Positions 10,507-43,449 of a DNA stretch of 49,343 bases are shown piece after piece. The stretch is from Leucoraja erinacea (lineage: Eukaryota): positions 1,874,658-1,924,000 of the forward strand of contig NC_073401.1 in assembly GCF_028641065.1 (NCBI RefSeq), written 5' to 3'. Position 1 is the stretch's first letter. Each line of letters starts with the position of its first letter. Below the pieces are notes generated by a model that was given only the letters and a program-made list of their open reading frames with translations, was not told the DNA's origin and did no database searches. A program made the position numbers and the translations under genes.

Positions 10507-11424
10507 ACCGGAAGGCGGCGCGACTTTCGTCAGCAGCGGCCTCCGCAGCCCGTCCGCATTTTTATTATTTTTTGTCTATGTTTATATGTAGTTTTTGTTA
10601 TTTTTTGTTGGGGTGTGTGTGTGGGGGGGTGGGAGGGAGGGGGCAACTTTTAAATCTCTCCCTGCACTGGAGACCCGACCTTTTCTTGTCGGGTCTCCGT
10701 TGTCGTTGGGGCTGCAATGAGGAGCGGCCTCCAACAGAAGAAGCCGGGGACTCTGGTGCCGACTCACCTCACCGTCGCGGAGCTGGCCGAGTCCAGAGCG
10801 GGTGGAGCGGTGGTGGAGCGCTGCTGCTGCTGCTGCTGTTGCTGCTGCTGATTCGGAGGCTGCAACTGCGGGTCTGCGGATGGCGGCACCGGGAGCCCGC
10901 GGGTCCCTGGAGGGAGACCGCTTTTCAGGGCTCCTGCAACGGCGACTTCTCCCGCCCGAGTTGCGGGGTCGAAGAGCTCCTGGAGCGGGGCCTAACATCA
11001 CTGCCCCGCGCGGCTTGGAATGGCCGCGGGACTCTGCGAGCGCCCGCCGGGGGCTCCAACATCAAGACCCGGTGTGCGACCTCGCACCACCCGGCGTGGC
11101 TTTAATGGCCGTGGGACAATCGCCATCGCCAGCCGGGGGCTTTGACTTTGACTCTGTCATCGGGGGGGGGGGGGGGCCGCGGGACAATCGCCATCGCCAG
11201 CCGGGGGCTTTGACTTTGACTCTGACATCGGGGGGGTGAGAGGGCAGTGGAGAGATAAGTTTTTTTTTGGCCTTCCATCACAACAATGTGATGGATGTTT
11301 ATGTAAAATGTAAATTATGTTGTGTCTGGGGTCTATTTGTTTGTAATGTATGGCTGCAGAAACGGCATTTCGTTTGGACCTCAAGGGGTCCAAATGACAA
11401 TAAAATTGACTCTCTTGACTCTTG
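10507..11424 (+). mobile_element. GC-rich non-autonomous retroposon, copy A (full length, Rex1-like tail)
   Basis: AAAAG TSD (10502-10506, 11425-11429); 3' stem-loop ATTTCGTTTGGACC..GGTCCAAATGACAATAAA then a (CTTGACT)-type tail; no tRNA boxes seen; no credible ORF. Confidence 0.75.
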
Positions 11425-11837
11425 AAAAGCAGGTCCCTGAGCGTTTCTGTGGCTAACTCCTGGTGCCATGTGCTGGTGAGGTTAGAAATGTAAAGATAGG
11501 ATAGATGAATGCACAGCTCAGGATTGGTTCAGGGGCCAGAGAATCAGATTTGTAGACCATTATGATCTCTTCAGTGAACAAGCATTTTGTGTATATTGAT
11601 CACAACTCTATAAATTTTAAGATTGTTGTGAACTAAACCCAAAGACGACCTCCACAACCGTCTGTAGCAATGCATTCCACAGATTCAACACACTCTGGCT
11701 CAAGAAATTCCTCATCTCTTTTCTAAAGGCACAATCTTGTATTCAGAGGTTGTTCTCTCTGGACATAGACTGGTGGAAACATCCTCTCCACATCCACTCT
11801 TTCCAGTCCTTTCTTGATCGTGCTTGGTGTCTGAGGA

Positions 11838-12585
11838 TAATAGACAATAGGTGCAGGAGTAGGCCATTCGGCCCTTCGAGCCAGCACCACCATTCTATGT
11901 GATCATGGCTGATCATCCCCAATCAGTACCCCTTCTACCTTCTACCCATATCCCCCGACTGCTATTTTTAAGAGCCCTATCTAGCTCTCTCTTGAAAGAA
12001 TCCAGAGAACCTGCCTCCACTGCCCTCTGAGGCAGAGAATTCCACAGACTCACAACTCTCTGTGAGGAAAAAGTATTTCCTTATCTCCATTCTAAATGGC
12101 TTACACCTTATTCTTAAACTGTGGCCCCTGGTTCTGGACTCCCCCAACATCGGGAACATGTTTCCTGCCTCTAGCGTGTCCAAACCCTTAACAATCTTAC
12201 ATGTTTCAATGAGATCTACTCTCATCCTAAACTCAAGAGTGTACAAGCCCAGCTGCTCCATTATCTCAGCATATGACAGTCCCGCCATGTCCTTTCTCAA
12301 ATTAGGGGACCATAAATGCACACAATACTCCAGTTGTGGTCTCACTAGGGCTCTGTACAACTGCAAAGGACCTCTTTGCTCCTATATTCGATTCCTCATG
12401 TTATAAAGGCCAACATGCCATTCACTTTCTTCACTGCCTGCTGTACCTGCATGCTTACTTTCATAAACTGTTGTATAAGGACCCCCAGATCCCGTTACCT
12501 TTTCCCAACTTGACCTTTTCCCAACTTGATGCCATATAGATAGTAATCTGCCTTCCTGTTTTTGCTACCAAAGTGGATAACCTCA
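11838..12585 (-). mobile_element. CR1 3' fragment (ORF2 C-terminus + 3'UTR), internally deleted
   Basis: QLYRALVRPQLEYCVHLWSP, LGESRTRGHSLRI; tail (CTATTGT). Confidence 0.88.
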
Positions 12586-12737
12586 ACAGGATGTAGGTGA
12601 ATGTGGAGAATTCTAATATGCAAGGCCTGTTCGGATTTAAGAAAGAGGAGAGGTTGAGGCTCTTAAAGAGCATTAAGGTGGATAAATCCCCAGGATCTGG
12701 TGGGATTTATCCCAGATTATTGTGAGAGGCAAGAGGC

Positions 12738-13132
12738 ACACCTCCGGAATCACGGACAGTTTCCCAGCTGTTACCAGGCAACTGACCCATCCTCCCACAA
12801 CGAGAGAGCAGTCATGAACTATCATCTTCCTCATTGGTGACCTTTGGACTATCTTTGATTGGACATTGGTGGACACAAAAAGCTGGAGTAACTCAGCGAG
12901 ACCGGCAGCATCTCTGGAGAGAAGGGATGGGTGACGTTTCGGGTCGAGACCCTTCTTTAGACTTGATTGGACCTTACTGGCTTTACCTTGCACTCAAAGT
13001 TATTTCCCTTATCATGTATCTATACACTGCAAATGGCTCGATTGTAATCGTGTATTGTCTTTCAGCTGACTGGTTGGCACACAACAAAAGCTTTTCACTG
13101 TCCCTCGGTTAACGGGGCAATAAACTAAACTA
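12738..13132 (+). mobile_element. Rex1/Babar 3' fragment containing a PLE terminal repeat (~12870-12963, minus)
   Basis: ...DSFPAVTRQL-like coding end; 3'UTR closely similar to 13540-13812; CAATAAACTAAACT tail. Confidence 0.7.
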
Positions 13133-13311
13133 TGAAGAGATTGCGGGAGCTTTGATGAAGATCTTAGGATGTTTTTTAGCCACAGACGAGGTTCCGGACC
13201 ACTGGAGAGTGGCTAATGTTGGTCCATTATTTAAGAAGGGAAGTAGGCGAATCATGGGAATTATAGGCCAGTGAGCCTCACATCTGCGGTGGGGAAACTA
13301 TTGGAGAGGAT

Positions 13312-13814
13312 TCATTGGGAGGATTCGGCTCCATCCAAATCGGCAAGGAATTGTAGAGAATGGTAGACGTAGCCCAGACCATCACACAAACAAACATACC
13401 TTCCATTGACTCCATTTACACTCCAAGCTGCCTCGACAAGGCCATCAGCACAAGTCTCAACCCTCGTCAGTCCCTCTTCTCCCCTCCCCCCCATCGGGCA
13501 AGAGGCACAGAAGAGTGAAAATGTTTTTTCCAGATTCAGGGACACTTTTTCCCAGCTGTTATCAGGCAACTGGCCCACCCTGTCAACAACTAAAGTGGCC
13601 CTGACCTACTAGCTACGTCATGGTAAACCCTCGGAAAATCTTTAATCGGATCTTACTGGACTTACTGCACTAAATGTTATTCCCTTTATCATGTATCTGT
13701 ACACAGTGGATGTCTCGATTGTAATCATGTATTGTCTTTCCACAGACTGGTTGGCATGCAACAGAAGCTTTTCACTACACCTTGGCATTTGTGACAATAA
13801 ACTAAACTGAACTA
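13312..13814 (+). mobile_element. Rex1/Babar 3' fragment
   Basis: Degenerate DVAQTITQTNIPSIDSIYT and SPLPPIG..RFRDTFS; tail GTGACAATAAACTAAACTGAACT. Confidence 0.75.
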
Positions 13815-13961
13815 GAGTCAGTAATTCATGATGTAGATTTATAGAGCTTTGGTTAGGCTACATTTGGAGTATTGTGTGAAGTTCTGAGTTCTGGTCACCC
13901 CATTAAAGGAAGGATGTGAAGGCTTTGGAAAGAGTGCAGAGGAGGTTTACTAGAATGATAG

Positions 13962-14327
13962 TAGACAATAGACAATAGGTGCAGGAGTAGGCCATTCGGC
14001 CCTTCGAGCCAGCACCGCCATTCAATGTGATCATGGCTGATCATCCACAATCAGTACCCCGTTCCTGCCTTCTCCCCATATCCCCTGACTCTGCTATTTT
14101 TAAGAACCCTATCTAACTCTCTCTTGAAAGCAACCAGAGAACCTGCCTCCACCGCCCTCTGAGGCAAATAAGTCCACAGACTCACAACTCTCTGTGAGAA
14201 AAAGTGTTTCCTCGTCTCCGATCTAAATGGCTTACTCCTTATTCTTAAACTGTGGCCCCTGGTTCTGGACTCACTCAACATCGGGAACATGTTTCCTGCC
14301 TCTAGCGTGTACAAGCCCTTAACAACT
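13962..14327 (-). mobile_element. CR1 3' fragment
   Basis: EAGNMFPMLSESRTRGHSLRIRSKPFRSETRKHFFSQRVV; same subfamily as 11838-12585; AGAATGAT duplicated at the flanks. Confidence 0.88.
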
Positions 14328-14894
14328 TTAACAGAATGATGCCTAGATTAGAGTGGATTGGCTACAGGGAGAGGTTGGACAGACTATGGTTGTTTTCTCT
14401 GGAATGCCAGAAGTTGCGGGGATACCTGATAGACGTATATAAAATGATGAGAGGCGTAGATAGAGGAGACAATGAGAATCTTTATCCCTGGATGAAAAAA
14501 TCAAATACCAGAGGGCATAGCCTGACGGTGAAAGGGCAAAGTTTAAAGGAGATGTGTGGAGCATATCTGGAATGCATTGTCAGGTTGTGATTGAAGTAGA
14601 TATAGTTCTGGTATTTAAAATACTTTTGGATAGGCATATGGCTATGCAGGGAATGGCAAGATATAGGTTGCATGTAGGTAAGTAAGTAAGTAAGTAATGG
14701 TCTTAACATTATATTCAATTCAGATATTGTGGGCTGAAGGGCTTTTTCTTGTGCTGTACTGTTCTATGTCCTATAACAAACTCTGAAACATCACAGATGA
14801 CTCTGGTTCAAGCAAGGAAGTGGCCAGACATTGCCAACTATTGACAATGATAGCCATGCCCTGCTTTGACTAAACATCAGATATGAAATGGTAC

Positions 14895-15240
14895 AAAGAA
14901 CATTCATTCGATCCCTGTACCTTTTCATATCTCGTTTTCCTCTCCCCTGACCCTCAGTCTGAAGAAGGTTCCCGATCCAAAACATAGAAACATAGAAACA
15001 TAGAAATTAGGTGCAGGAGTAGGCCATTCGGCCCTTCGAGCCTGCACTGCAATTCAATATGATCATGGCTGATCATCCAACTCAGCATCCCATACCTGCC
15101 TTCTCTCCATATCCCCTGATCCCCTTAGCCACAAGGGCCACATCTAACTCCCTCTTAAATATAGCGGGAACATCACCTATTCCTTTTCTCCAGAGATGCT
15201 GCCTGGCCTGCTTACTTACTCCAAGTGTTTTATGTGTATG
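14895..15240 (+). mobile_element. PLE terminal repeat interrupted by a CR1 3' end (~14981-15165, minus)
   Basis: ctcagtctgaagaaggttcccgatccaaAACAT | CR1 | AACATcacctattccttttctccagagatgct. Confidence 0.75.
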
Positions 15241-16024
15241 TTCAATTTAAATGACATGCTTATTGAAACCCTAACATCTCACACATTGCTCCCCACTGAA
15301 ATTCAGGAAGGACAATTATTCCATCAACACTTTGGGAGACATTTATTTATAAGGGCCTTTCTGATCAATTTTTCATCTCCGGCAATTGTTCCTTTTCTCC
15401 AGAGATGCCGCCTGAACTGCTGAGTTATTCCAGCATTTTGTGTCCAACTTATTCTACCAACTCCCAATAATACAGTATTCTGAAAGGGATGCCTACCAAC
15501 AAATCCTTGACCAGACCGAGCTAGTTATGTTTCAGCTTGGGATTCAGCAATCTTTCAAAGCCTAACTCTGTGGCCTTTTGCAACATGAAACACCAGTAGA
15601 ATATGTCAAGTAGAATGACAGTTACATAAAGAAGGATTCCATCAATAACCAGCACATGGGTTACTAGGTTATAGTAACATCACAGTACATTACCCAATCA
15701 TTTACCTGGAGACTGTTTCACATTCACCTATCAAGCAATTAAAACTGACAATCTGAAACCAATCACTTACAGAGGAGGTGTTGCTATTGCCATTGAACCA
15801 AAAACAATCCAATTCCGGCAAATAAACACAGGCTCAGGCCTGTTGTCTCAGAATCACAGCCTCCTTTCTTTCAGTGCTTAATCCTTTCTTCCGGTGTTCC
15901 AGAGATAATTAGGGCAGGACTTTTTTCCAAATACATTCAATAACTTGCAGAAAATAGCAAGCATTTTCAGTTTCCTCTCCCCTCCTTGACACGTCAAGTT
16001 GCCAATCCATCACAAACTTCCATA

Positions 16025-16451
16025 AGACAGACACAAAATGCTAGAGTAACATCAGCGGAACAGGCTGCATCTCTGGAGAGAAGGAAAGGGAAGACCCTTC
16101 TTCAGACTGATGCCAGGAGAGTGGGCGATACAGTGATAGAATGCAGTCGGAGACAGTAAGACTGGTGGGAGAACTGGGAATGGGGAGGGGATGGAGCGAG
16201 AGGGAAAGCAAGGGCTGCTTGAAGTTAGAGAAGTCAATGTTCATACCGCTGGTGTAAGCTATGCAAGCGAAATATGAGATGCTGCTCCTCCAATTTATGC
16301 TGGGCCTCACTCTGACAGTGAAGGAGGCCCAGGACAGAAAGGTCAGTGTGGGAATGGGAGGGGGAGTTAAAGTGTTGAACAACCGGGAGATCAGGTAGGT
16401 TTAGGTGGACTGAGCGGAGGTGGACAGCAAAACGATCGCTAAGCCTGCGCT
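16025..16451 (-). mobile_element. Penelope-like element 3' end: GIY-YIG endonuclease C-terminus + terminal repeat
   Basis: Translates RRLSDRFAVHLRSVHLNLPDLPVVQHFNSPSHSHTDLSVLGLLHCQSEAQHKLEEQHLIFRLHSLH/SGMNIDFSNFK (R..H helix, catalytic E, GxN end), followed by the terminal repeat. Confidence 0.85.
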
Positions 16452-18035
16452 GAAATAAAAAGTCTACTAGATTTTCCTAGCAACTGTTGTCTCCCATTCA
16501 TTTGAGTGGTGTCTGCTGTGCTTGCCTCAGGTATGAACTGACGCTGACATCTGGGTCAATTCTTCAGCTGGAGATCTCAACCCGAAACATCACCCATTCC
16601 TTCTCTCCAGAAATGCTGCCTGACCCGCTGAGTTTTTGTGTCTATCTTGGGTTTAAACCAGCATCTGCAGCTCCTTCAAATCACAATCTTCCATAACACA
16701 ATTACACACATCCCAGCAGGACAACATAAATATAATTAATGCTCAAATTAATGTGCAAGATATTGAACTGGAACTTCCTGGCAGTACACTCCTTGCGTGC
16801 CTCTGCTTTAAATCTGATTGAATAGATAATGGCGCAAACCCCAATGTGTTCACAATTTCAAAGCGTGGGTGTTTCTGGGTACAATCAGAATGGCAGTTGG
16901 ACCTGATCATGTCCCACCCACAAACATACTGAGCCATGCTCCAGACATACCAAACCTTCAAAAAATAATCACAAAATTAGTACACTATAACAACTACATT
17001 TATTAATCTCTATCTGTTCAAAGTTTGTAAATTACATCAAGACTCCGCATCTTATCATGGGCTTTCTATTCCGTTTGAAGGAAAGAGGTGATGGAACTTC
17101 TTAAGAAACCCTAATGTCCTCCATGTCTTCAACATGGAGATCCAGTCAAAAGGTGTGAGCTGACAAAAAGTGTTGGACCTCTGCACATGCATGCGTTTGG
17201 ACAGCAGTCCCGAGCTTCATGGCACACAAGGAAATACCGGCAATTCTGCAATGGCATTGTATTATCATTTGATTCCTAAACTTGCTAATTATCAATTCCT
17301 TTCTGTCATTTTAATGGAAACTGCCAGAAAGCTATTAAATAAATTGCACGGGGAAATTCAATCAGGACCCACTCATACACTCCCTATCTCGCAGTTAACT
17401 TTCAAGATGATGTCATAAAATGTCAAACATAATAATTATGATGGGAAAGTTTAACAGTCCAAGCAGTTGAACACCAATAATTTAGAGTCAGTGTGTCGTA
17501 CTGCATAGAAACAGGCCCTTTGGCCCTCCCAGTCTATGCCAACTATCAAGTACCTATCGATATTCTTCATAAATGTACCTGCAGTTCATCACAGCACAGT
17601 TTCAGGGGTTGGATAAGGGTTTATATGGAAAGTTAGATCGCATGGGATCCAGGGACAGCTTGCCGACTGGATAGAGAATTGGCTTTGAGTCATAGAGTCA
17701 GAGTCATAGAGTGATACAGTGTGGAAACAGTCCCCTCGGCCCAACACGCCCACACGACGGTGCCAACCATGTCCCAGATACACTAGTCCCACCTGCCTGC
17801 ACCTGCCCCATATTCCTCCAAACCTGTCCTATCCATGTACCTGTCTAACTGTTTATTAAACGTTGGGACAGTCCCAGCCTGAACGACCTCCTCTGGCAGC
17901 TATTTGGAAAGAAGCAGAGGCTGATGGTGGGAGATCGTGTTTTTGGACTGGAGGTCTGTGACTAGTGGTGTGCTTCAGGGATCGGTGCTGGGCCCTTTGC
18001 TATTGTAGTTTTATCAATGATTTGGATGAGAATGT

Positions 18036-18380
18036 CGCAGGAGGTTCGACTAGCCTCGACCCGTGGTCCGATCACCCCCCGTGATGCGGGAGCTTGATCG
18101 CCCCGACATAGAGGGCTCGACCGCCTGCTGTGGGAGCCAAAATCGCCCCGACAACGGAAGGTCAAGTGTCCCGACCGCGGGAGAACAAAGAAGGGAAGAA
18201 GATTGAGATTTTTTTGCCTTCCATCACAGTGAGGAATGTGGGGGAGTTGCTGTGGTGGATGTTCATGTTAAAATGTATTTGGGTGACTTGTTGCTCTTTA
18301 TTGGCATGACTGTATGGGAAATCAAATTCCTCGTACGTTACAAAACATACTTGGCTAAATAAGTATGATTATGAATATGA
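18036..18380 (+). mobile_element. GC-rich non-autonomous retroposon, copy C (5'-truncated)
   Basis: Core GCCTTCCATCACAG...CTGTGGTGGATGTT; tail CAAATTCCTCGTA..ACATACTTGGCTAAATAA then (ATGATT)n. Confidence 0.7.
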
Positions 18381-18748
18381 TCGGCGGTCACTCAAAATGA
18401 GTATGACTGCTCTCCATAGGGTCGTCTACTTGTGGGTCTGTAGATGTCTGTAGAGGCTGATCCGTGATCCACGCACCTTGGAGCAACGTGGGCAGTGGAG
18501 ACTGGCAGTGGTTGGTAATCATCAAGCCCCCTTCTCTCTCCGTTCGACTGTTGAACTATCAAATGGGCATAGTTCCATTTCATGACATCCAGCTCCTTCC
18601 TGCACGGATTTCCTCCAGGAGCGCCTGTCCAGTGCAATTTGCTCCCAGTTGCTCGATGTGATGTGGAAATTCTACAAACTGTTCTTGATGTTGAAGCGTT
18701 TCTCTGGCCCGCCGGCGGCTCGCCGACCTTCCTTCAGCTGAGAACGAT
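18381..18748 (-). mobile_element. RTE (BovB-like) LINE 3' fragment
   Basis: SQLKEGRRAAGGPEKRF..NWEQIALDRRSWRKSVQEGA..HCPRCSKVRGSRISLYRHLQTHK*; inserted in the (ATGATT)n tail of copy C. Confidence 0.8.
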
Positions 18749-19870
18749 TATGATTATGATTATGGCAAGGCATGGTCAGTAAGTTGGCAGATGACACTAA
18801 AGTGGGCGGTACCATTACTCGCGAAAATTATGTATCTAAACTTACAGCAGGTTCTTGAACAGTTGGGCAAGTGGGCTGCGGAATGGCTAATACAATTCAC
18901 TGTAGATAAGTGTGTGGTGTGGGGTCAAACTAGTGTTGGACTTCACAGTGAATGGCATGGCCCTGGGGAATATTGCAGAGCAGGGGGATCCAGGAGCACA
19001 AGTACATCGTTCTTTGAAAGTGGCGTCACAGGTAGATAGGGTGGTCAAGAAGGCTTTTGGTACGTTGGCAGGGTGTTGAGTAGAGAAGTCAGGACGTCAT
19101 GTAACAGATATACAAGGCGTTGGTGAGGCATCATTTGGAGTATTGTACTACCCTTCTATGGGAAGGATGTTGGTGAGAAGATTTACAAAGATGTTGCCAG
19201 GACTTGAGGATCTGAGCTACAGGGCGTGGTTGGGCTGGCTGGGATATTATTCCTTGCAGTACAAAAGGATGAAGGATCTTTAGCTTAGTTTACAGATACA
19301 GCATGGGAACAGGACCTTTGGCCTACCGAGTCGATGCTGACCATTGATCACCCACTAACACTAGTTCCAGGTGTTTCTCAACCACTCCCTACACACTAAA
19401 GGGTCTAAATATCTCCATCCAACCCAGTCCTCAAGCATCGCATGACCTCACTTTCCCCCAGATATTAAGGCATAATAATAAAAATCTGGAAATCAGTAGA
19501 TGATTTCTTCCTTGCCTCTTGGCAATTTATTTTTCTCATAAGGTATTACAAAGTTGAAAACCGGTTATGGTCTATAAATGAAACATTTGACCTAACAAGT
19601 CAATGCCTGCATTTATGCTCCACACCATCTTCGAACCACTCCAATCAATTTATCTTGTGATTGCTTTTTATTTTGAATACATATTTAACTTCTCCTTGAG
19701 GGCAGCTGTGATCTTCACATCATCTGCTCCTGGTGTCATTAAATTGCATTTTCTGATGTAAGCTTTTCAGAGCTTCATTTCATAAGTGTGAGACAAATGG
19801 ATCAAGACTCTGCTGTGCGATGAACGGAATGAATGTGTTAGCATGTTCACTGTAAATAACTTTATCTGCT

Positions 19871-20110
19871 TTTTGTTTGGTTTAGATATACGCGTGGAAA
19901 CAAGCCTCTCGGTCCACCAAGTCCACGTCGACCATCGCTCATATGATTTACCCGTACACTATGTTCTGTGTCCTGCTCAAAAAAGGGCATTTTACAGAAG
20001 CCAATTAACCTACAAACCACATCTTTGGAATGTGGGGGGAAACCAAGCCATCCGCAGAAAACCTATACATTTACTGGGAGAAGGTACAAACTCCAGACAG
20101 ACTGCATACA
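19871..20110 (-). mobile_element. Degenerate V-SINE
   Basis: V-domain (GGAGTTTGTACCTTCTCCC) and CR1-like tail. Confidence 0.7.
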
Positions 20111-20428: not shown

Positions 20429-21852
20429 AATTATAGACCTGTTAGTTTGATGTCAGTGGTGGGCAATTTAATGGAAAGGATACTTAGAGATAATATATAT
20501 AAGCATCTGGATAAACAGGGTCTGATTAGGAACAGTCAACATGGATTTGTACCTGGAAGGTCATGTTTGACTAATCTTCTTGAATTTTTTGAAGAGGTTA
20601 CTCGGGAAATTGATGAGGGTAAAGCAGTGGATGTTGTATATATGGACTTTAGTAAGGCCTTTGACAAGGTTCCTCACGGAAGGTTGGTTAAGAAGGTTCA
20701 ATGTTGGGGTAATAATGGGTGTGGAGTGGAGTAGCAAGATGGATTCAAACAGTGGCTGAATGGGAGATGCCCAGAGAGTAATGGTGGATGGTTGTTTGTC
20801 AGGTTGGAGGCCATGACGAGTGGGGTGCCACAGGGATCTGTGTTGGGTCCACTGTTGTTTTGTCATGTACATCAATGATCTGGATGATGGTGTGGTAAAT
20901 TGTTGCGCTTCGTTAGTAAGTATGCAGATGATACAAGATAGGTGGGGTTTGTGGATAATGAAGTAGAGTTTTCAAAGTCTACAGAGAGATTTATGCCAGT
21001 TGGAAGAGTGGGCCTGAAAGATGGCAGATGGAGTTTAATGCTGATAAGTGTGAGGTGCTACATCTTGGCAGGACAAATCAAAATAGGACGTACATGGTAA
21101 ATGGTAGGGAATTGAAGAATGCAGGTGAACAGAGGGATCTGGGAATAACTGTGCACAGTTCCCTGAAAGTGGAATCTCATGTAGATAGGGTAGTAAAGAA
21201 AACTTTTGGTGTGCTGGCCTTTATAAATCAGAGCATTGAGTATAGAAGTTGGGATGTAATGTTAAAATTGTACAAGCATTGGTGAGGCTAATTTTGGAGT
21301 ATGGTGTACAATTTTGGTCGCCTAATTATAGGAAGGGTTTCAACAAAATAGAGAGAGTACAGAGGAGATTTACTAGAATGTTGCCTGGGTTTCAGCAACT
21401 AAGTTACAGAGAAAGGTTGAACAAGTTAGGGCTTTATTCTTTGGAGCGCGGAAGGTTAAGGGGGGACTTGATAGAAGTCTTTAAAATTATGAGAGGGATA
21501 GACAGAGTTGACGTGGATAAGCTTTTCCCACTGAGAGTAGGGAAGATTCAAACAAGGGGACATGACTTGAGAATTAAGGGACAGAAGTTTAGGGGTAACA
21601 TGAGGGGGAACTTCTTTCCTCAGAGAGTGGTGGCTGTGTGGAATGAGCTTCCAGTGAAGGTGGTGGAGGCAGGTTCGTTTTTATCATTTAAAAATAAATT
21701 GGATAGTTATATGGACGAGAAAGGAATGGAGGGTTATGGTCTGAGCGCAGGTAGATGGGACTGGGGGAGAATATGTGTTCGGCACGGACTAGAAGGGTCG
21801 AGATGGCCTGTTTCCGTGCTGTAATTGTTATATGGTTATATGGTTATATGGT
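20429..21852 (+). mobile_element. Young 5'-truncated CR1 LINE (RT and C-terminus, frameshifted)
   Basis: NYRPVSLMSVVG, QHGFVPGRSCLTNLLEFFEEVT, VYMDFSKAFDKVPH, SGVPQGSVLGP, SKYADDT, LEYGVQFWSP; tail (GGTTATAT)n. Confidence 0.95.
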
Positions 21853-22011: not shown

Positions 22012-22108
22012 AGACTGTGGAAGGGTCTCAACCCAAAACGTCACCTATTCCTTCTCTCCAGAGATGCTGCCTACCCCGCTGAGTTACTCCAGCATTTTGT
22101 CTCTATCT
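22012..22108 (+). mobile_element. PLE terminal repeat flanked by a ~44-bp duplication
   Basis: aagggtctcaacccaaaacgtcacc...ccagcattttgt; flanks 21968-22011 and 22109-22152 are imperfect copies. Confidence 0.75.
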
Positions 22109-23434: not shown

Positions 23435-23446
23435 CCCCCCCCCCCC

Positions 23447-30117: not shown

Positions 30118-30220
30118 AAGTCTGAAGAAGGGTCTCGACCCAAAATGTCACCCATTCCTTCTCTCCAAAGATGCTGCCTGTCCCACTGAGTTACTCCAGC
30201 ATTTTGTGTCTACCTTTGTG
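30118..30220 (+). mobile_element. PLE terminal repeat in HSPB8 intron 2
   Basis: agtctgaagaagggtctcgacccaaaatgtcacccattcc...ccagcattttgtgtc. Confidence 0.8.
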
Positions 30221-31333: not shown

Positions 31334-31542
31334 AATCTCCACCATCTGATATTGAGTCAGCAAAGGAAAACACAACATTGGAAGCTCTCAGCTGGCCAGG
31401 AAGAAGATGGGTGGCGCCAGGTGATGGGTTAACCAGTCCTGACCTTGGTGCTCACAGTTTAGCTTCAGCCCAAGAGCAGTGGTCTTGCCCACCTCATATA
31501 GTGGGTGAAAGGGCCGGCTCTCCCTCTCAGCCCCCAACTGAC

Positions 31543-31942
31543 CTGATATCTCCACGAAGCTGTCTTTGGTTTTGATGGTGAGCTCCTCTGGGGCGAAGCT
31601 CTGCACGTTGACACACATCTTCCAGGGTTCGCCGGGGCTGAGGCTGGGTGGGCTCCTGGTCTCAGGGTAGCCCGTGTAGCGGGCCGTGTAGTGGGGCGGC
31701 GACGGGCTGCCGGCGGCCGCGGCATCGCGGGCTGCTGCCCCGTTGAAGGACGACCTCAGCGGGCCGGGCCAGGTGGATGTGAGCCTGGGGCGAGCCCAGT
31801 CGGGCCAGTCGGCCGTGAAGTGGTCGGGGAAGGGCGACATGCCGAAGTCCTCCTCCAGGAAGCGAGGATCTCGGAAGGGGTCCCTGGTGCTCCTGTGCCT
31901 GCCGGGGATCTGGCAGGAGAAGGGGACCTGACCTTCAGCCAT
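31543..31942 (-). CDS. HSPB8: HSPB8 (HSP22) coding exon 1
   Basis: Translates [11 protein letters not shown]...RDPFRD...[22 protein letters not shown]...[32 protein letters not shown], matching the HSPB8 N-terminus and start of the alpha-crystallin domain. Kozak GCCATGG; donor G|GTCAGT; 400 nt, phase 1. Confidence 0.97.
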
Positions 31943-32310
31943 GGCTACGCACTCTCTACCCCTCTCAGCTCACCGACCCGCTGCTTTATACTGGCGTTGG
32001 GGGAGGCGAGGACGCCGGCAGTTGTCATCAGTAAAATCTGATCTATGAGCAATGCGCAGGAATGCGGGCCGGCCCGCCCGCGGGAGCGCTATCCTCTTAC
32101 GTGTGCTGACCAAGTTTAGCCATCCCTCGCTTCGCCCTGCCTCCCCGCCGGCTATTTCAAGCAGCGCCGCTCATCCTTGTTTACCAGCCGCCGGCTCCAG
32201 TGGGCGACGATGTGTCCGCTTCATGGACCGCTGCCGGCGCTCGTGTGCTGACAAAAGTACTCACAAACCCGGCACTCACTGCGAAAAGTACCAAACACTT
32301 CAACTTGGGT
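31943..32310 (-). promoter_or_regulatory. HSPB8 proximal promoter / CpG-rich region with candidate TATA box
   Basis: CpG-dense sequence continuous with exon 1; TATAAA on the minus strand at 31985-31990, about 45 nt upstream of the ATG. Confidence 0.55.
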
Positions 32311-32312
32311 AA

Positions 32313-32622
32313 AGGGCCTGTCCCACTTACGCGGCTTTTACAAGCGACTGCCGGCACCCGTGATAGGTCGCCGAAATTTTCAACATGGTAAAAAATCAGC
32401 GGCGACCAGAAAGACGCCACGACTCTTTGGAGACCTCTCCACGACCGTAGGAGAACTCTCACCACCATGCAGCCTGTATGGTCGCAAGAGGTCTCCTATG
32501 GTTGTGAGAGGTCTCCAGAGCCTTTCTGGTCGCTGCTGAATTTTCCACATGTTGAAAATTCCGGCGACCTATCACGGGTGCCGGCAGTCGCCTGTAAAGG
32601 TCGCGATAGTGGGACGGGCCCT
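32313..32622. mobile_element. PIF/Harbinger-type MITE with long terminal inverted repeats, just upstream of HSPB8
   Basis: AGGGCCTGTCCCACT...AGTGGGACGGGCCCT; about 100 bp of inverted similarity; TAA/TTA flanks. Confidence 0.85.
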
Positions 32623-33029
32623 TTACACGACCGTCTGGCCACATTGTCCCCGTCTCTACCAAAGGGAACGAACTGCAGATGCTGGTTTACACTGAAGATA
32701 GACACAACATGCTGGAGTAACTCAGCGGGACAGGCAACATCTCTGGAGAGAAGGAATGGGCGATATTTTGGGTCGAGACCTCTCTTCAGACTATATTATA
32801 CTCTAGTATAGATACTATCATATTATACTTGAGTTTAATCAGGCCAAGTACAAGTGAAGTGCAAAGAGAAAAATACCGAATATTATATAATCTGCGGAGA
32901 TACTCCAGCATTTTGTGTCTATCTTCAGTGTGAACCATCAGCTGCAGTTCATTCCTATACATGAGTAGTATGGGTGCAGTGTGCAGTGTGACAGTGTGCA
33001 GTGTGACAGAAATCACGAGGCAGACGCAA

Positions 33030-34388: not shown

Positions 34389-35569
34389 TTTCTTTGGCTA
34401 GATGGGACAATGTGGCTAGACGGTGTCCTCCTTGCTCATCTTACCTTCTCACAATTCTGGAAATTATTGTTGTGCAGTCAGACTACATTTAGATGGATTC
34501 ACAGTGTGACTTACTCTGAGTGGTGCCAGTTTGGGCTTTGGAGTTTGCCCCAACAAGTCCATGCATCATGTTTAAACAGAAAGTGCTGGAAATACCTGCG
34601 GAGAAATGACCTGGCAATATCTCTGTTTATCAAAGAGTCATTGGCCTGAAAGGTCAAGTTATTTCTTCTGCACATGGAAGCTGCCATATGTTCTCCATGT
34701 CATCCTGTGATTTACCCATGAGACTCCTGTTATCTCCTACATCCCAGCAGCTGTGAGTTGGTAGGTCAATTGCCAAGCCTACACTGACCCTGGTGTGGGT
34801 GAGATGAAGAGTCTGGGTATTGATTGGAATGTGGGGGGAAAAGGTTACATTGAGAATGAGACCCGGTCCGATCCGTAACCTGCTTGGGTTTTCTGTGAGA
34901 TCTTCGGTTTTCTCTCACTCTTTAAAGACACAGAGGGTTGTAGATTAATTGGCTTGGTGTAAATGTAAACATTGTCCCTATTGTAGGATACTGTAATGTG
35001 CGGGGATCGCTGGTCGGTGAGGACTTGGTGGGCCGAGGATGGATTCAATGTGCGGAAATGGCCTTCTTTGCTAACTGTTTTGTATAGGTGTTTTGAGAAT
35101 TTAATTTAAATCATTTGTGGTAAATAACTTAGAATATCCCATGGTTGAAAAGTTTTTTCTTCTTCTTAGGCAGTCCTTTGAGAATAACTTGCTTCCACTC
35201 AGATTTTGCGGATTCTGAGGTGTCTGACGAGACCAATGTGGGAACCTCAGACCCTTCTGTCTATTAATTATTGCAATCAAAAGAAAACATGAGGTAGTTG
35301 CCCAATGGATTATAATGAATTTGACCATCATAAAGTAATGTATCTTCTACATTTCAGAAACTCATCATTATATTACAAGGCTAGGAACAAATGAAGCTTG
35401 GTTTTCATGGAGCTAGTAGGTGATCATATTAAACTTACCCATCTACTAACTTTGTTTTGACTTCACCATTTGTCGTATATATTTAGTACATGGAGCCTAT
35501 TTGGAAGAAAGTTTCTCAGAGGTGGGTTTCCTTGAAAAAAAATGGGACCATTTCAGTAGTGTTTGACAC

Positions 35570-35885
35570 CAGAGATATTAAGCTGCTGCCTCACAACTCC
35601 AACAACTTGGGTTTACTCTGAATTCTGACATGCTCTCTGTGTAGTTTGTACATTCTCCCTGTGACTGCATGGGCTTTTTCCATGTGCTCCAGTTTCCTCC
35701 AATATCCCAACACAAAGAGTTGATCGGTTAATTGGCCTCTGTAAATTGTCCCTAGTGTATGGGGAGGGGAGTAGTTGAATCTTGTGTGGTGGCATTTATG
35801 GGAACTCAGGAAAAATAGAGCGGGCATGTGAATGGGTGCCTGATGTTCGGCATGGACTTGTTTCCATGCTGTGGGACTCTGTGAA
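35570..35885 (+). mobile_element. Degenerate V-SINE (partial copies also at ~34700-35045)
   Basis: gctgctgcctcacaactcc head; gtagtttgtacattctccctgtgactgcatggg V-domain. Confidence 0.75.
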
Positions 35886-35889
35886 ACTA

Positions 35890-36545
35890 TAGTTCTCCGA
35901 CTAGTTTCACTGTCCTCCTGATTAATTTAACTGATTGTATGCCTCGTTGTCATCTTCCCCTCAGTTTACAATGAACCATTTCCATTTCCTTGTGTCTGTT
36001 TTGATCTGTCATTTTCACACCTTACTGTTCCATGTCTCTTGTCTCCCTCTCCCCTCTCACCCATTCCCTTTCTCCAGAGATGCTGCCTGTCCCGCGGAGT
36101 TACAAGATAGACACAAAATGCTGGAGTAATTCAGCGGGACAGGCAGCATCTCTGGCGAGAAGGAATGGGTAATGTTTCGGGTCGAGACCTTTCTTCAGAC
36201 TTCACGTTCTCTTGGGATGACAAGGCAGCAGGCAGGTCGTGCAACGTTGAGAATAATGAGGGCAGCGACTGCAGGCCAGATCCAGCCCAGTGTGTGCTCT
36301 TAGGTGAATAAGATGGGAGAGTCATCCCTCATTCCAATAGTGTAGGTCCTTCAACAGCATTACGTTCCAGGGTGTCTCTGACTAACAAAATGTAGAACAA
36401 AATGTAGATAAACCCTCTGAAGAAGGGTTTCGACCTGAAACGTTGCCTATTTCCTTCGCTCCATAGATGCTGCCTCACCCGCTGAGTTTCTCCAGCACTT
36501 TTGTCTACCTTTGATTTTCCAGCATCTGCAGTTCCTTCTTAATCA
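35890..36545. mobile_element. Cluster of PLE terminal repeats (35890-36200 inverted pair; 36415-36543 second subfamily)
   Basis: Core variants at ~36172-36198 (minus) and CTGAAGAAGGGTTTCGACCTGAAACGTT at 36417; CAAAATGTAGAT duplicated around the second. Confidence 0.75.
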
Positions 36546-38024
36546 AAATGTAGATCAAGATGAGTGAGGATGTGAAACCTGTGATCAGAGAGCAGTCAGT
36601 TTAAATTTACAATGTTGTAACATGCAGGCAAAATGTAAACGAGAGTATCACCTTGTTGCATAGCAGTACCTCTTGAGTATATGGAAATTGTTTGAAAAAC
36701 ATCTAACGGCAGGAAATGTTGAATTTCTTATAATTTACATGTTACAGGACTTAAATAAAGTAGGATAAAGTCAATATTAATTATATCTGTAAACATCAGT
36801 CTCTATTTTTCTCTTGTTAGACTAATGGGTTTGGTTTATTTAAACTGCACCTTTCCTGTCCATTGAGCTGTAATCTTAGAATGATGCAGACATTTTGTTC
36901 AGAATGACTCAGCTCGTATACACTTTCTCTTTTCTAACATCACTGCAGCTTAATTCAGATCACAGCCTGGGATCCCATATCCATATTTTTATAGTTCTAT
37001 TTAACAATGTCACTTTGGCAAGATAATCAAGCAGAAATGATTTGACAAATTGTGTTTATGGCCACTTCATTTCAATCTAGGGGCCCTGCTGTTTAACAAC
37101 ACCACAGAAGAAGAACAAAACAGCAGGGAAGCACTTTACATTTCCAGATTCAAATCATTTGCTTGACTGGGAATCAAGTCAAACGCGGCACTACTGATGC
37201 TTCCATTCCCCAACTAACTTCTGAGGAACAACTGACCTTGGAAAACAGTTGATTCCACTGTGTAAATATCACACTGTAAGTACAAATTGAAAATTTGCTG
37301 TTGGAGGGGAGGTCAAGGGCACAAAACATTTAAGTGCCAACTAGCTGCCCTGGGGAAAGTCATGTCATGGGTTTCTGTCCAGGATTGTGGACCAGAAACA
37401 TTTTCACAGCCTAAAGGATGTTCTACACAAAAATGTCCTTGAGCTGCATATTTTATTTCAGGCTGTAAGTACAGCTAACTCATGCAATGATAGCAGTGCA
37501 TCACTTAGCATATCCAGCAAGGTCTTCTGGCCAGTTTAATGACTCAACTATTACATTGTGTGAACCTCCGTGCAGAACTGGTGTCATTTGATCAGAGAAA
37601 TGACTCTTTTACGTTGTAACATCACACCAAGTGGTTGCGGTCTTTTTACTGGGTACCCCCTCTGCCTTCTCTGATAAGGACAGTATGTTGTGAAGAGGAA
37701 TCCAAGGGTGGGGAAAATAAACGATCAAACTCTCACTCAACAGTAATAGCTATGAATGAAAAATATCTTACAAATTATTTTTAATCAACTTTTAGAGTCA
37801 AAGAGTCTTACAGAGTGGAAACAAGCCCTTTGGTCCAACTTGCTCACACCGGCCAACATGTCCCATCTACACTAGTCCCACCTGCCCGCATTTGGCCCAT
37901 ATCCTTTTATTGATGATCTCAATGGCACAGCAGATAAGACCCTGGCAGAAGTTAGTATTTTAAAGAATTTCACTATTCAGGAAAGAACTTCTCAGGAAGC
38001 GGAAAGTTCAAAATGTATTACCTT

Positions 38025-40300
38025 TTGAATGAATGAATGAATGTATGAATGAATGATTGAATGGATGAATACGTTTGTTGTCATTGCACAACACTGTGCA
38101 ACGAAATTCCATTACACCTCCTCCGGTTAAAAAATACAAACACGATAACCATTGACACATATGTACACTTATTAGTAAAATAATAAATAAGTATTTAAAA
38201 AGAATTTAAAAGAATTTGGTGGCATTTCTTGGAATTACATTTTGCTTCCCTAGTGTTCTCTGTTGGAATTTAGCTCTTTTATCGCACATGGGTAGAAACT
38301 ATTTTTTAGTCTACTGGTACGAGCCTTCAGAGACCTGAATCACCAGAGACCTGAATCACCAGAGACCTGAATCGCTTCCCAGAGGGTAGCAGAGTGAAAA
38401 GGTGGTTGGCAGGGTGGGATGTGTCCTGCTTGATATTTGTGGTCCAGCGCAAGCATCGGGCCCTGTATATATCATCCAAGGAGGGCAGTTGAGCGTTTGT
38501 AATGCTCTGTGCAGTTTTTATAATTCCCTGCAGCGCCCTCCTCTCAGCCACAGTACAGGTAGCAAACCACACCAGGATTCCATAGGAGAGGATACTTTCC
38601 ACGGCGCATCGGTAGAAGGACAGCAGCAGCGGCTGTGAGACGTTTGCTCTCCGCAGAGACCTCAGGAAATACAGCCGCTGCTGTGACTTCTTCACGAGAG
38701 TGACGGTGTTCATTTGCCATTTGAGGTCCTGGGAGATATTTATTCCCAGGAACTTAAAGCCAGTGACTCTCTCCACCATGTCTCCTTTGATGTATAAGGG
38801 AGCAGGTTCCTCTCTCCTCTTCCTCCTGAAGTCAACGACCAGTTCTTTTGTCTTTGATGGGTTGAGTACCAGGTTGTTTTTGGTACACCAGACAGTCAGT
38901 TTTTGGACTTCATCTCTGTAGGCAGACTCGTCGTTGTTGTTTATCAGTCCCACCACAGTCGTGTCGTCCACAAACTTGATGATCCTGTTTGTACTGTGTG
39001 TTGGTGTGCAGTCATAAGTGTATATTGTATACAAGATGGTACTCAGCACACAACCTTGTGGCGCTCCTGTGCTGAGCGTCAGGACTGGGGAGTAATTGGA
39101 CCCCATCCTGACAGTCTGTGGGCGGTCTGTTAAGAAGTCCTTCATCCATCTGCATGTGTTTGCATTAACACCCTGATCAGACAGTTTGTCCACCATTCTG
39201 CTGGGGATGATGGTATTAAATGCAGAACTAAAATCTACAAATAACATCCTCACATATGAGCCAGGGCGCTCCAGATGTGCCAGTGCAGAATGTAGAGCTA
39301 TGTTGATGGCATCTTCCGTTGACCTATTAGCTCTATATGCAAACTGATGCTGATCCAGGGTGGATGGGAGTGAGGACTTAATGTGGGCCAGGACCAGCCG
39401 TTCAAAACATTTCATCACCGTTGAAGTGAGAGCAACAAGTCTATAGTCATTCAAGCTGGTAATAGATGTTTTTATGGGTACAGGCACGACAGTAGCAGTT
39501 TTGAAACATTTAGGGACAGTGCACGTTGACAGAGAGAGGTTAAAGATGTCGCTAAAAACCTCCGCTAACTGGTCTGCACAGTCCCGCAATACTCTCCCTG
39601 GGATGCCATCTGGGCCAGCAGCCTTCCTGGGGTTGACCCTGCGGAGTGCTCTTCTGACGTCCTCCGTACTCACAGTGAGTGGCACAGTGAGTGCGAGGTC
39701 GTCAGTGCTGGGTGCGGCTGCAGGTGCAGGCTCCGCCTCATTCAGCTCAAAACGGGCGAAAAAGTGGTTGAGCTCCTCAGCTAGCGAGTTGTTACTGCTG
39801 TTGATGATCGGCCCCCCCTTGCCCTTGTAGTTTGTGAGTTGCTGAATGCCCTGCCAGACACGCCGAGGGTCCCTCTCGTTAAAATACCCCTCTAACCTTC
39901 TTCCATAGACTGTCTTTGCCTCTTTGATGGCTCTCTTTAGTTTAGATCTGACAGTGCTGTACAATTCATCACTGCCAGATCTAAAGGCTGAGTTGCGTTC
40001 CCTCAGCAGTTTCCTGACATCCCTGGTCATCCATGGTTTGTTGTTTGGATAGCACCTGACCTCCCTGTCGACAGTGACGTTGTTGATACAGTTCTGTATA
40101 TAGAACATGACTGTGGATGTGTATTCTTGTATGTCCTGGTTTGCAAACAGGTCCCACTGGGTGCGCTCAAAACAGTCCTGAAGTTGGGCGGCAGCGCCCT
40201 CGGGCCAAGTCTTTATGTTTCTCACACTGGGCTTGGTTCTCATAATGAGAGGTCTGTATGCCGGGGTGAGAAAGAGTGATAGATGGTCTAGGTATAATTT
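38025..40300 (-). mobile_element. Young 5'-truncated Rex1/Babar LINE with a 665-aa open RT ORF
   Basis: DHLSLFLTPAY (end of APE), KAAGPDGIPG, LNDYRLVAL, HQFAYRANRSTEDAI, FVDFSSAFNTI, GAPQGCVLS, KFVDDTT (mutated FADD); natural stop 38250-38252; 3' stem-loop and (ATTC)n tail. Confidence 0.93.
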
Positions 40301-41009
40301 CTGATGATCTAGGTATAATTTCAAACAAGTATCATTTTGGGATACAGTCTATGAAGATTTCAAGTTGTGACTTTAACACACTATCATGTTAACAAAAATA
40401 ACTGAATCTGTTGTTGACAAATGTTTTACTCCACTCCTCCACATTCTCTCATGCTCTATCTGGGCTGTCCAGATGAACTGATGGAAATGGATTTTTCTGA
40501 TAAGTCAGCCTCTCCCTTATCACTCTAAGCTGTGACAACAAGGATAATGGAATATGAGCTAAGTGAATGTCAATCTTTTTTTTCACGCTGCAGCTCCTAA
40601 GCTACCATGCCCAGCTACATCAAGTTTCTCGCAATCAAATTATATCCTTTATTAGTTAGGGTCTGTTACTCAAGTTCGCCTACTGCAGTTGGTCAGCAGA
40701 TTTTATTGAAGTCTAGAAATAGCTGTCTAAAACAGTGGTGAGAATGTGTTCTACCAAGGACAGCCTGTTTGTAAAGAACGGAGCAATGGATTTATCATCA
40801 TTAACATCATCATGGTTTATAATTTATAAAATGCAAACCTTTTTTTTCTTCTATGAGAGATTGGGCAACAAATCACAGAGGAAATTTTATCAGAGCAATG
40901 AGGCTTATCACAAGCGACACAGGTATGTGTGTCCTCAAGCCCATATGTGGCGGGAACAATTTTTATCTCTTTCCTCGACGTAGAAGTGACTTTTTCCGTA
41001 TCGTATCTC

Positions 41010-41357
41010 CGTCCATGCTGCAGCCTAACATCATGGAGCTGACGGTCCCATGGCTGGGGATCAACTTCGGGAGCTCCAACCACGGGAGTTTCAATCGACC
41101 CAATGCGGGAGCTTCGATCGCCGACTGCAGAAGCTTCGATCGCCCCAACTGCGGATGGTTTGACTGAGAGAGAAAAGGAGGGAAGAAGATAATACGTTAT
41201 TGCCTTCCATCACAGTGCGCTGTGGTGGATGTTTATGTTAATTTTTTTGTAGTTGTGTGTTTTGTTGGCTTTTTGGTATGACTGTATGGCGAGTCAAGTT
41301 ATCTGTATGTTCTTACATACTTGGCTAATAAATTCTTCGCATCTTGTATCTTGATTC
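41010..41357 (+). mobile_element. GC-rich non-autonomous retroposon, copy D (5'-truncated)
   Basis: Core hairpin 41206-41229; tail ACATACTTGGCTAATAAA; shares gcctaacatca and gctccaac motifs with copy A. Confidence 0.7.
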
Positions 41358-41532
41358 CTATGGTCCACCAATTCAGAAATGTTTTGTATATTCTCCAATG
41401 TAATCACTGTGCCAATAGCATTGTAACTCTAAACTGGGCAATATGGCCAGGAGTTCTGGAATCCTGGAATTTTCTCCTGAAACTCCTTCTCTTTCCCTCT
41501 CTATGGCGGCTTCCTTTTTTAAGATGCTCTTT

Positions 41533-42035
41533 AGATCATAAGATCATAAGAGATAAAAAAAGTAGAATTAGGCCATTCGGTCCATCAAGTCTACTTTGCC
41601 ATTCAATCATGACTGATCTAACTCTCCCTCCTAACCTCATTCTCCTGCCTTCTCCCCATAACCTCTATCACCAATACTTATCAAGAACCTATCTATCTCT
41701 GCCTTAAATATATCCACTGACTTTGCCTCCACAGCCTTCTGTGGCAAATAATTCCACAGATTCACCACCCTCTTCGTAAAGACATTCCTCTTTCCAGGAT
41801 GGGAGACTGCAACCTTAACGGATACGAGGAAACACTTTTTCTCACAGAGAGTGGCGAGTCTGTGGAATTCTCTGCCTCAGAGGGCGGTGGAGGCCGGTTC
41901 TCTGGATGCTTTCAAGAGAGAGCTAGATAGGGCTCTTAAAGATAGCGGAGTCAGGAAATATGGGGAAAAGGCAGGAACGGGGTACTGATTGGGGATGATC
42001 AGCCATGATCACATTGAATGGCGGTGCTTGCTCGA
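41533..42035. mobile_element. Two CR1 3' fragments in opposite orientation (41533-41795 minus, 41821-42035 plus)
   Basis: CR1 3'UTR motifs; RKHFFSQRVASLWNSLPQRAVEAG. Confidence 0.8.
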
Positions 42036-42494
42036 TTGTTGATTACTTCCTGATAGCGAAGAGTAACGGAGAGATGGGAACCTGATTTACTTGTTGAAAA
42101 GTAATCCGAATGCGAAGGGTACTCCTAATTCTGTAGAACTTAGAGAGGAGAGATAGAGGTTCCCCTATAGAAGTCCAGTCTTAGCTGGATAGTAACATTC
42201 GGGAGGAAAAGTAGTCATTTAAGGATTAGTACCCCTTAGCAAAGAGTAACCTAGGAAGGGGAAAATCTTCGGTATCGGAGGGAGAGGTTCACTGATTAAT
42301 AACAGCGTGACGCGGCATTGAGATTGAGCTTTTGTAAACTGTGCGCTGGCGCGTTGTCATTTTTGTAAATTGTAAAATTTTAATATTGTCTTTTTTGTAT
42401 TGTTATCGGACCCGAATTATGTAAATATTTTGTGTATGTAAATAGATTTAGAGTGTATTAAGATTTAGAAAGTTAACATTTAGAGCGGACCGCT

Positions 42495-42496
<2 letters not shown>

Positions 42497-42551
<55 letters not shown>

Positions 42552-43449
42552 AATAATATGTATTTATATAGTACATTTATAGTCAATTTTCATTGAACCC
42601 AAAGTGCTTTACATAATTTAAAAATCAGTTCCATACAAAGCATAAAGATGGGTTAACAAAATAATAAAATGCATAAACAGGACACAACATGTAACATAAA
42701 CATCCACCACAGCATTCATCACTGTGGTGGAAGGCACAAAAAATTTTGGCCGTCCTCCTCCATTTCCCCCCCCGTGGACAAGACCAGAGTCCAGAGTCCA
42801 GTCCAGGATCGGTCTTTCCTCACCGGAGACCGCGGCTTCAAGATTGTGTAGGCCGCAGGCCGGCGGTTGAGATTTAAAGTCCCCGCTGCAGCCAGAAGCA
42901 CCGTAGACTGCAGGGCCGGCGGTCGAAGCTCCCCTCCAGGGGTGATGGTAAGTCCATGCCGGGCCCGCGGTAGAAGTTATCCGCGGGCCGGCAATCGCGG
43001 CTTCTTCTTCCCCCGGGTCCCCCACGAGGGATCCCGGGCTGTAGGCGCCGCAGCAGCTGGAACTCTGCAGACCGCTTCAGGCTGCGACTTCAGGCTGCCG
43101 GCTGCCCCGGACCAGTGAAACGGAGCACTCCCCTCCGGCGAGCCCCAGCGAGGGCTCACCCGCTCCACGCCGAGTCCATGCTGCGCCTGCCACTGAAGCC
43201 CTGGGCACGTCTCCGGGAAAGACCTCACCGATCCTTGATGGTAGGCCACGGGGGAGGCGACCTGGAAAAAGTCGCCTCTCCATGGAGGAGGCGACCAAAG
43301 CGGTTTCCCCCTTACACCACCCACACCACCCCCCACACAAAACACAAAAAACCCCACTAAATACACACTTTAAAACATACTAAAAATAAAAAATAAAATT
43401 GAAAGGCTGACGCGCTGCTGCCATGGCTGCCGCCAAAACAGCGCCCCCT
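42497..43449 (-). mobile_element. GC-rich non-autonomous retroposon, copy B (full length, L2-like tail)
   Basis: Head architecture as in copy A; core hairpin 42703-42731; tail TGTAAAGCACTTTGGG...TATATAAATAAA then (TAT)n. Confidence 0.72.

Follow-up and report, generated by a model that had tools for sequence, protein, structure and literature searches.

Four copies of a non-coding element (A, B, C, and D) lie in a 49,343-nucleotide stretch of Leucoraja erinacea DNA (contig NC_073401.1, positions 1,874,658 to 1,924,000; here called the window), where they share one short core and finish in different 3' ends. The question they raise is whether they belong to one group of retroposons that has changed its partner long interspersed nuclear elements (LINEs), or whether they are repeats already catalogued, LINE remnants, or one-off chimeras. 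We put the probability at roughly 0.68 that they belong to three or more diverged families within a single group of LINE-mobilised retroposons without an RNA polymerase III (Pol III) head, and that their tails have been exchanged. The evidence comes from the four copies in the 49-kb window and one relative from outside it (P0001).

The pattern GCCTTCCAYCACA-N(2-32)-TGTGRTGGATGTTYATGT, which describes the core, matched four sites in the window and was found in none of 100 shuffled sequences. A fifth core copy was not found in the window by a profile hidden Markov model or by a covariance model run with its filters off, and the earlier note's count of four copies with one common core is upheld. 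The core is a hairpin with a variable apex of 4-22 nt. Its arms are identical at 29-30 of 31 positions in all six copy pairs, and the 70-nt flanks on each side are 50-70% identical. All 36 cells of the stem are paired, and eight of its nine pairs are invariant across the four copies. In A and B, the core sits 600-760 nt from the 5' end. The copies and their parts, with core positions taken from the pattern search, are as follows.

10507-11424, plus strand: copy A, apparently full length (918 bp), bounded by a target-site duplication (TSD) and with its 5' end aligned with that of B
10507-10558, plus strand: GC-rich head of A, weakly homologous to the first 50 nt of B (z 4.1-4.7, block shuffles)
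10654-10665, plus strand: 5' arm of helix P1 in A
10669-10698, plus strand: UUUU-loop hairpin P2 of A
11244-11256, plus strand: 3' arm of P1 in A, followed by a U-run
11270-11304, plus strand: core of A
11367-11404, plus strand: terminal stem-loop of A, with foot motifs common to a presumed Rex1-type LINE end
about 11405-11424, plus strand: terminal repeat of A
18036-18764, plus strand: copy C, 5'-truncated, within a CR1-like reverse transcriptase (RT) fossil, with its tail reaching about 18362
18216-18268, plus strand: core of C
about 18381-18745: reverse RTE-like piece that splits the (TATGAT)n of C
40949-41357, plus strand: copy D, 5'-truncated near the G-run, with a C-type tail
40963-40976 and 41178-41192: P1 arms of D
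40980-41010: P2 of D
41202-41238, plus strand: core of D
42497-43450, minus strand: copy B, apparently full length (about 954 bp), with a tail of its own
43282-43299 and 42745-42763: P1 arms of B
43251-43281: P2 of B
42694-42735, minus strand: core of B
42497-42558: (TAT)n of B

Some of these boundaries replace earlier ones. D starts near 40949 rather than at 41010; C, once ended at 18380, has its (TATGAT)n interrupted by the reverse RTE-like piece and ends at 18764; and B, described as finishing in AATAAA, actually ends TATATAAATACA(TAT)n. The full length of D's family would be about 550 nt. The interior of A contains a 68-bp tandem duplication with G-runs (11107-11236).

The copies had been taken to be related by the core only, and this proved too narrow: homology extends upstream of the core, together with a shared RNA architecture. 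Starting at their 5' ends (A 10512, B 43450), the bodies of A and B can be aligned at 70% identity over 534 ungapped columns (z 6.0-7.6), and none of 300 composition-preserving block shuffles scored as high. This signal is carried by the head and the 5' hairpin module, with a weak middle (z 2.3-3.0). The 5' module is common to A, B, and D (z 5.6-10.3), but in its 3' body and tail D matches C (z 10-11). Body alignments of B with C, and of the remainder of A with D, were not significant, and that of A with C was borderline. A GC unit (GGGAGCTT...GCC) is repeated in D (41083-41154) and C (18088-18150) and is present in B (42917-42933). The motif GCCTAMCATCA also occurs in A, B, and D, at differing positions.

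Whole-copy folds of A, B, and D pair a pyrimidine-rich arm before the 5' hairpin with a purine-rich arm before the core, forming P1, a predicted long-range helix. The arm sequences differ in each copy, and the cognate duplexes of A, B, and D are predicted at -23.5, -31.5, and -20.5 kcal/mol, respectively, compared with -7.9 to -18.7 kcal/mol for non-cognate combinations. Cognate pairing was the stronger in three of three rows, and shuffles were as strong in 10, 0, and 14 of 2000 cases. The best cognate site lay 24-32 nt before the core in eight of nine tests, and the domain enclosed by P1 was better folded than shuffled sequences in A (z -6.4) and B (z -4.4). The layout begins with a GC head, a U/GU-rich linker, a G-run, the P1 5' arm, and the P2 hairpin; it continues with a variable GC-rich body, the P1 3' arm, a U-run, the core hairpin, a U-rich spacer, a family-specific tail, and a microsatellite.

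Insertion as whole units is supported for two copies. A is flanked by a 5-bp target duplication, AAAAG (10502-10506 and 11425-11429). The flanks of C align in order to a second CR1-like RT copy (20787-20887 and 20907-21057) and read INDLDEN and then QGMVSKLADDTK, with a spacing 8 nt off that of the reference copy, which is itself frameshifted there. The duplication around A and the interruption of a CR1 fossil by C show that both moved as units. B, C, and D have microsatellite ends; together with 5' truncation and a short TSD, such ends are consistent with target-primed reverse transcription. The discrete insertion of A with its TSD and the 5' truncation of C and D are as expected of LINE-dependent retroposons. 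The 3' fragment at 18381-18745 (minus strand), which we take to be RTE-like, shows an apparent duplication of about 13 bp and is younger than C, since it was inserted into C's microsatellite tail. Judged by motifs, the sequences on either side of A may be parts of one CR1 ORF1 esterase fossil, an assignment that Pfam, PDB, Atlas, and protein searches did not confirm. An element of about 245 bp resembling a miniature inverted-repeat transposable element (10055-10298; terminal inverted repeats 10058-10095 and 10259-10296) interrupts the same ORF1-like fossil.

Downstream of the core, the tails form three unrelated classes: that of A, that of B, and that of C and D. The C and D tails align (z 15.5, with none of 300 shuffles as high), and the remaining five of six pairs show no similarity (z -1.9 to 1.0), as the earlier description of three distinct 3' ends had it. 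C and D share their junction at only about 70% identity, and the tail starts at a similar distance in all copies, with the end motif 90-134 nt from the core. A candidate partner clade for the tail of A is present in the window.

38026-40348, minus strand: 5'-truncated LINE with RVT_1 and PF09004 matches
38074-38107, minus strand: stem-loop in its 3' part
38026-38070, minus strand: its microsatellite

We take the combination of RVT_1 and PF09004 to be typical of Rex1/Babar; the minus-strand orientation corrects the one given before. The motif ATTTCGTT-N-AATGACAAYAAA has two sites in the window, at A 11367-11404 (plus strand) and at the LINE 3' end 38074-38107 (minus strand), and was absent from all 100 shuffles, the pattern having been chosen after both sites were seen. 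Neither the B tail nor that of C and D has a matching LINE end in the window, so their earlier labels, an L2-type end and a second Rex1-type end, respectively, remain tentative. The LINE protein had no confirmed relative in GTDB genomes, and no Rex1 tail sequence was found in the accessible part of PMC6274825. A second LINE, at 1271-4100 (plus strand), has a near-complete endonuclease and RT with few stops and a (TTA)n end; it was rejected as a partner, its tail matching none of the four copies.

The apparently full-length copies, 918 and 954 bp, fit the earlier description of a non-coding element of about 0.9 kb without a tRNA head. ARAGORN found no tRNA in the window copies, and Rfam gave no match at gathering scores and, for A, B, and D, only weak unrelated matches at E<=5; the region of C was included in the gathering scan only, and C and D are 5'-truncated. 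The Rfam scans also showed no 7SL similarity. An exact B box is absent from all four copies, and runs of at least four T residues occur eight times in A and 12 times in B, which argues against transcription by Pol III. CpG observed/expected ratios are 0.82-0.98 in the copies versus 0.44 in the window, and the head of A (10507-10558) is a candidate internal promoter for RNA polymerase II (Pol II). We reject a coding function of the bodies, since neither of the two long frames that were scanned had a Pfam match and frames are not conserved. By the SINEBase definition of short interspersed nuclear elements (SINEs; PMC3531059), the group is not a SINE: the copies are interspersed, non-coding, and shorter than 1 kb, and they have no head derived from tRNA, 5S, or 7SL RNA. 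Nor does a tRNA or 5S head directly precede the conserved domain, as in the CORE, V, Deu, Ceph, Meta, and UCON3 superfamilies, and no hammerhead or hepatitis delta virus (HDV)-like ribozyme of the kind that marks retrozymes and ribozyme-bearing retroelements was found.

One relative was recovered from outside the window. P0001, an open reading frame, represents a diverged A-type body (E 4.9e-8 among 1.84 billion representatives), colinear with approximately nt 140-565 of A across two frames, with a frame switch relative to A. Judged by this sequence match, A-type bodies do occur beyond the window; P0001 ends before the core and is uninformative on the core-tail junction. A profile of P0001 and the two A frames recovered only P0001 among 8000 candidates, a translated search with the junction-spanning frame of B gave none among 628 candidates, translated-frame searches in the ESM Atlas yielded nothing usable, and plasmid records held no matching DNA copy. 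Two further matches were rejected: P0002, a second match to a frame of A, at 26% identity and with no tblastn match to the window, and a 48-nt match between a phage record and the GCT-repeat region of A, which is of low complexity.

Several observations weigh against the reading of one tail-exchanging group. Covariation in the core stem is not significant (383 of 500 shuffles were as high), because eight of its nine pairs never vary. P1 came to notice post hoc: in 7 of 18 tests a non-cognate arm likewise fell close to the core, the margin in D is small (about 1.5 kcal/mol), 28 of 618 other windows in A are as good at pairing as the fixed cognate one, and P1 of A has a pair probability of only 0.48 at full length. 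The enclosed domain of D folds no better than shuffled sequences (z -0.6), and the A-B match in the TG-rich linker is compositional only. No target duplication was found for B and none was clear for D, and the proposed Pol II transcription is deduced from absences of Pol III features. Among 1630 windows, the LINE end does no better than tie with an unrelated site as the best non-self match to the A tail (local alignment score 28), and an nhmmer model of the A tail alone missed it at E<=1. Of the earlier claim that the tail of A is a Rex1-type LINE end, the common short motif and stem-loop stand, with a weak match by plain alignment. A tail origin is supported for A alone, and weakly.

The idea that partner LINEs were switched is partly supported: one group carries three unrelated tails, the C/D junction recurs, and the A tail resembles a LINE end, but the core-tail junctions of A and B were each seen once. 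We conclude that the group consists of real, mobile, modular retroposons of about 0.55-0.95 kb that depend on LINEs and are probably transcribed by Pol II, with tail exchange likely and shown for few copies.

Three other origins were considered alongside this one. The families may already be catalogued, as relatives of CoeG-SINE or as unclassified, SINE-labelled, or LINE-labelled Repbase or Dfam families of cartilaginous fish. We regard this as possible but on the unlikely side. With four copies in 49 kb, the repeat is presumably abundant, and de novo libraries would be expected to contain it. CoeG-SINE, compared here by description only, is reportedly specific to Latimeria, which counts against a relationship. 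Its insertions of 1018 and 1362 nt are non-coding, one with a 5-bp TSD, and its copies are too diverged for mutual detection at 80/80 (PMC4255032), features that keep this explanation in play. Against it, the core motif matched only unrelated papers in a full-text literature search and was not found, as exact short motifs, in the searchable supplements of SINE papers including PMC4824008, PMC7245038, and PMC5786205; the chondrichthyan SINEs in the accessible text of PMC5499810 and PMC3747384 are all tRNA-headed. The core pattern had no match in GTDB genomes. The literature search returned no description of the group, with subscription papers, Repbase Reports, and figures mostly beyond its reach.

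It is less probable still that the copies are deleted or truncated LINEs, either bipartite non-autonomous LINEs or long untranslated regions (UTRs). A GC-rich 5' end without Pol III features does resemble a LINE 5' UTR, a 5'-UTR origin of the ancestor is compatible with the data, and bipartite LINE derivatives exist and may lose their tail by exchange (PMC5786205). However, the 5' ends of A and B coincide at the same homologous position despite their divergence, unlike random 5' truncation, which argues against truncated LINE UTRs. The core is absent from the 3' UTR of the Rex1-type LINE, and one body with three tails is not the UTR of one LINE, so the suggestion that the copies are UTRs of a single autonomous element falls. 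The accessible part of PMC5786205 reports bipartite forms for RTE, Ingi, Vingi, and R2 and for no other LINEs, and a descriptor search found no HDV-like fold. The copies could also be one-off template-switch chimeras of a structured RNA with LINE 3' ends rather than propagating families, as the single copies of A and B in a window full of nested insertions might suggest. We consider this very improbable: the C/D junction is common to copies of only about 70% identity, the tails begin at a similar distance from the core, and the bodies differ far beyond copies of one cellular gene and match no Rfam family.

Within the reading of one tail-exchanging group, the role of the core is a further question. 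Candidates dropped were a splice acceptor (AG absent in A), an iron-responsive element (absent in A), an Sm site (lost in D), the triple helix of an expression and nuclear retention element (ENE; no paired U-rich loop), and a hammerhead or HDV ribozyme (no Rfam match, hammerhead core motif, or match to an HDV-like descriptor run without a positive control). With their sequences (T)GCCTTCC and GGATGT, the foot strands of the core complement a conserved segment of 18S ribosomal RNA (rRNA), which we take to be helix 14, the U14 pairing site. They read as CTGCTGCCTTCCTTGGATGTGGT with the central TT replaced by the inner hairpin; CTGCTGCCTTCCTTGGATGTGGT is a fish 18S reverse primer (PMC5139125), the same segment occurs in a tardigrade 18S (PMC5830310), and U14 guides Cm414 of yeast 18S (PMC5699541). 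Cofolds of core and 18S segment gave a three-way junction in all four cores (ddG -11.5 to -13.7 kcal/mol), and 10, 2, 5, and 0 of 500 shuffled targets bound as well. A split match of 14 occurred in 5 of 3000 random targets of 1.9 kb, 18 of 3000 of 7 kb, and 23 of 1500 of 15 kb, and in 29 of 3000 hairpin-rich 7-kb targets; the best split match in 46 kb of window background was 11-12. An H/ACA small nucleolar RNA (snoRNA) guide was dropped, the unpaired target bases being AA and the cofolds having no lower stem. The 10-mer GCCTTCCATC, which includes the 18S-complementary strand, was also seen in two UCON3-domain rows (PMC7245038 supplement).

The element may be as proposed and its core nonetheless bind protein or pair intramolecularly, leaving the 18S match as chance or a relic of antisense rRNA or snoRNA; we rate this a little short of an even chance. 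The match is expected by chance at about 1% and was found post hoc, full-length cofolds place the 18S segment on the core in only one of four copies, the 5' end of A is as good a partner for the core 5' strand as 18S is (-13.2 vs -12.9), and the invariant TTYATGT and inner CACA/TGTG lie outside the rRNA pairing. On the other hand, no intramolecular partner is common to all copies and none accounts for both core strands, the 5' edge of core conservation coincides with the edge of the pairing footprint, and an opening-energy estimate favours binding at the core in all four copies (-6 to -13) and over the best other site in three of four. Given the rest of the reading, docking of the core on the small ribosomal subunit by 18S pairing is a tentative model, to which we give clearly less than even odds.

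We propose that Pol II would begin transcription of a full-length copy at the CpG-rich 5' end and that the RNA would fold into a rod closed by P1. Its terminal stem-loop would be bound by the second open reading frame protein (ORF2p) of the matching LINE, and target-primed reverse transcription would follow. Template switching or recombination immediately downstream of the core may replace the tail and with it the partner LINE, while the core would be kept for a partner-independent job at the RNA level; the favoured job, docking on the small ribosomal subunit, would place the RNA near newly made ORF2p. That all of this describes a new superfamily of long Pol II non-coding retroposons, with rod RNA, 18S docking, ORF2p capture across clades, and free tail swaps, is improbable in our estimate. 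If true, a SINE-type conserved domain would for the first time have a mechanistic function. LINE-dependent elements would have to be defined more broadly to take in a head-less group of about 0.9 kb, and the core offers a testable hypothesis, direct pairing with 18S rRNA, for why a domain stays the same as its partners change. Should the rRNA step fail, the families would still be a usable marker set and point to a possible curation gap for cartilaginous-fish genomes.

The window as a whole is animal DNA rich in LINE fossils, and its repeats seem to be of skate or ray type. It contains a small heat-shock protein exon (31388-31969, minus strand; Pfam HSP20, score below the cut-off) that is presumably HSPB8, and a further inverted pair at 32309-32626. 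Several abundant repeat families of 100-360 bp occur in both orientations across the window (e.g., 8581-8677, 22012-22108, and 30119-30215; 11836-12194 and 13964-14325) and are probably the 3' ends of other retroelements. The surroundings of B (42000-46200) are AT-rich, with a degraded open frame at 45208-45654 that has no Pfam match, and this stretch is possibly an old element of the long terminal repeat type.

Like the CORE, V, Deu/Nin, Ceph, Meta, and UCON3 superfamilies, which persist by changing their LINE-derived tails (PMC4824008, PMC7245038, PMC11481361), the group has a short domain conserved across diverged families and tails that were probably exchanged; the role of SINE conserved domains is stated to be unclear (PMC11481361). 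Unlike them, it has internal T-runs and lacks a tRNA, 5S, or 7SL head, and its core adjoins the tail, whereas their domain lies behind the head. With the UCON3 domain it has only the 10-nt GCCTTCCATC in common, in two rows with different flanks. The copies are longer than the SINEs of SINEBase (75-662 nt; PMC3531059). CoeG-SINE, at about 1.0-1.36 kb, is alike by description in being non-coding, with highly diverged copies and a short TSD (PMC4255032). In the accessible descriptions, the RTE-dependent SINEs of birds with GC-rich heads of unknown origin, SINE28, and SINEU share a non-canonical head and an unproven transcription route; bipartite RTE parts or a named RNA head occur in those elements, whereas the copies here yielded neither an RTE part nor an Rfam RNA. 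Bipartite non-autonomous LINEs (RTE, Ingi, Vingi, R2) are likewise non-coding, and their LINE tail and lack of Pol III transcription are probably features of the group too, but both of their ends come from one parent, whereas here related bodies bear three unrelated tails, of clades outside those that the accessible part of PMC5786205 lists as making such forms.

As in H/ACA snoRNAs, the target would be held by two strands flanking an upper stem, with two of its bases left unpaired between them; the differences are a target of AA rather than U-N, no lower stem, no consistent ACA or D box, and no Rfam snoRNA match. Alu and other 7SL SINEs resemble the group in that 5'-3' pairing closes a rod and in the proposal that a conserved module carries the RNA to the ribosome (PMC7245038). 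The proposed route differs: Alu is proposed to dock through the signal recognition particle proteins SRP9/14, whereas the elements described here, which have no 7SL similarity, would pair with rRNA directly.

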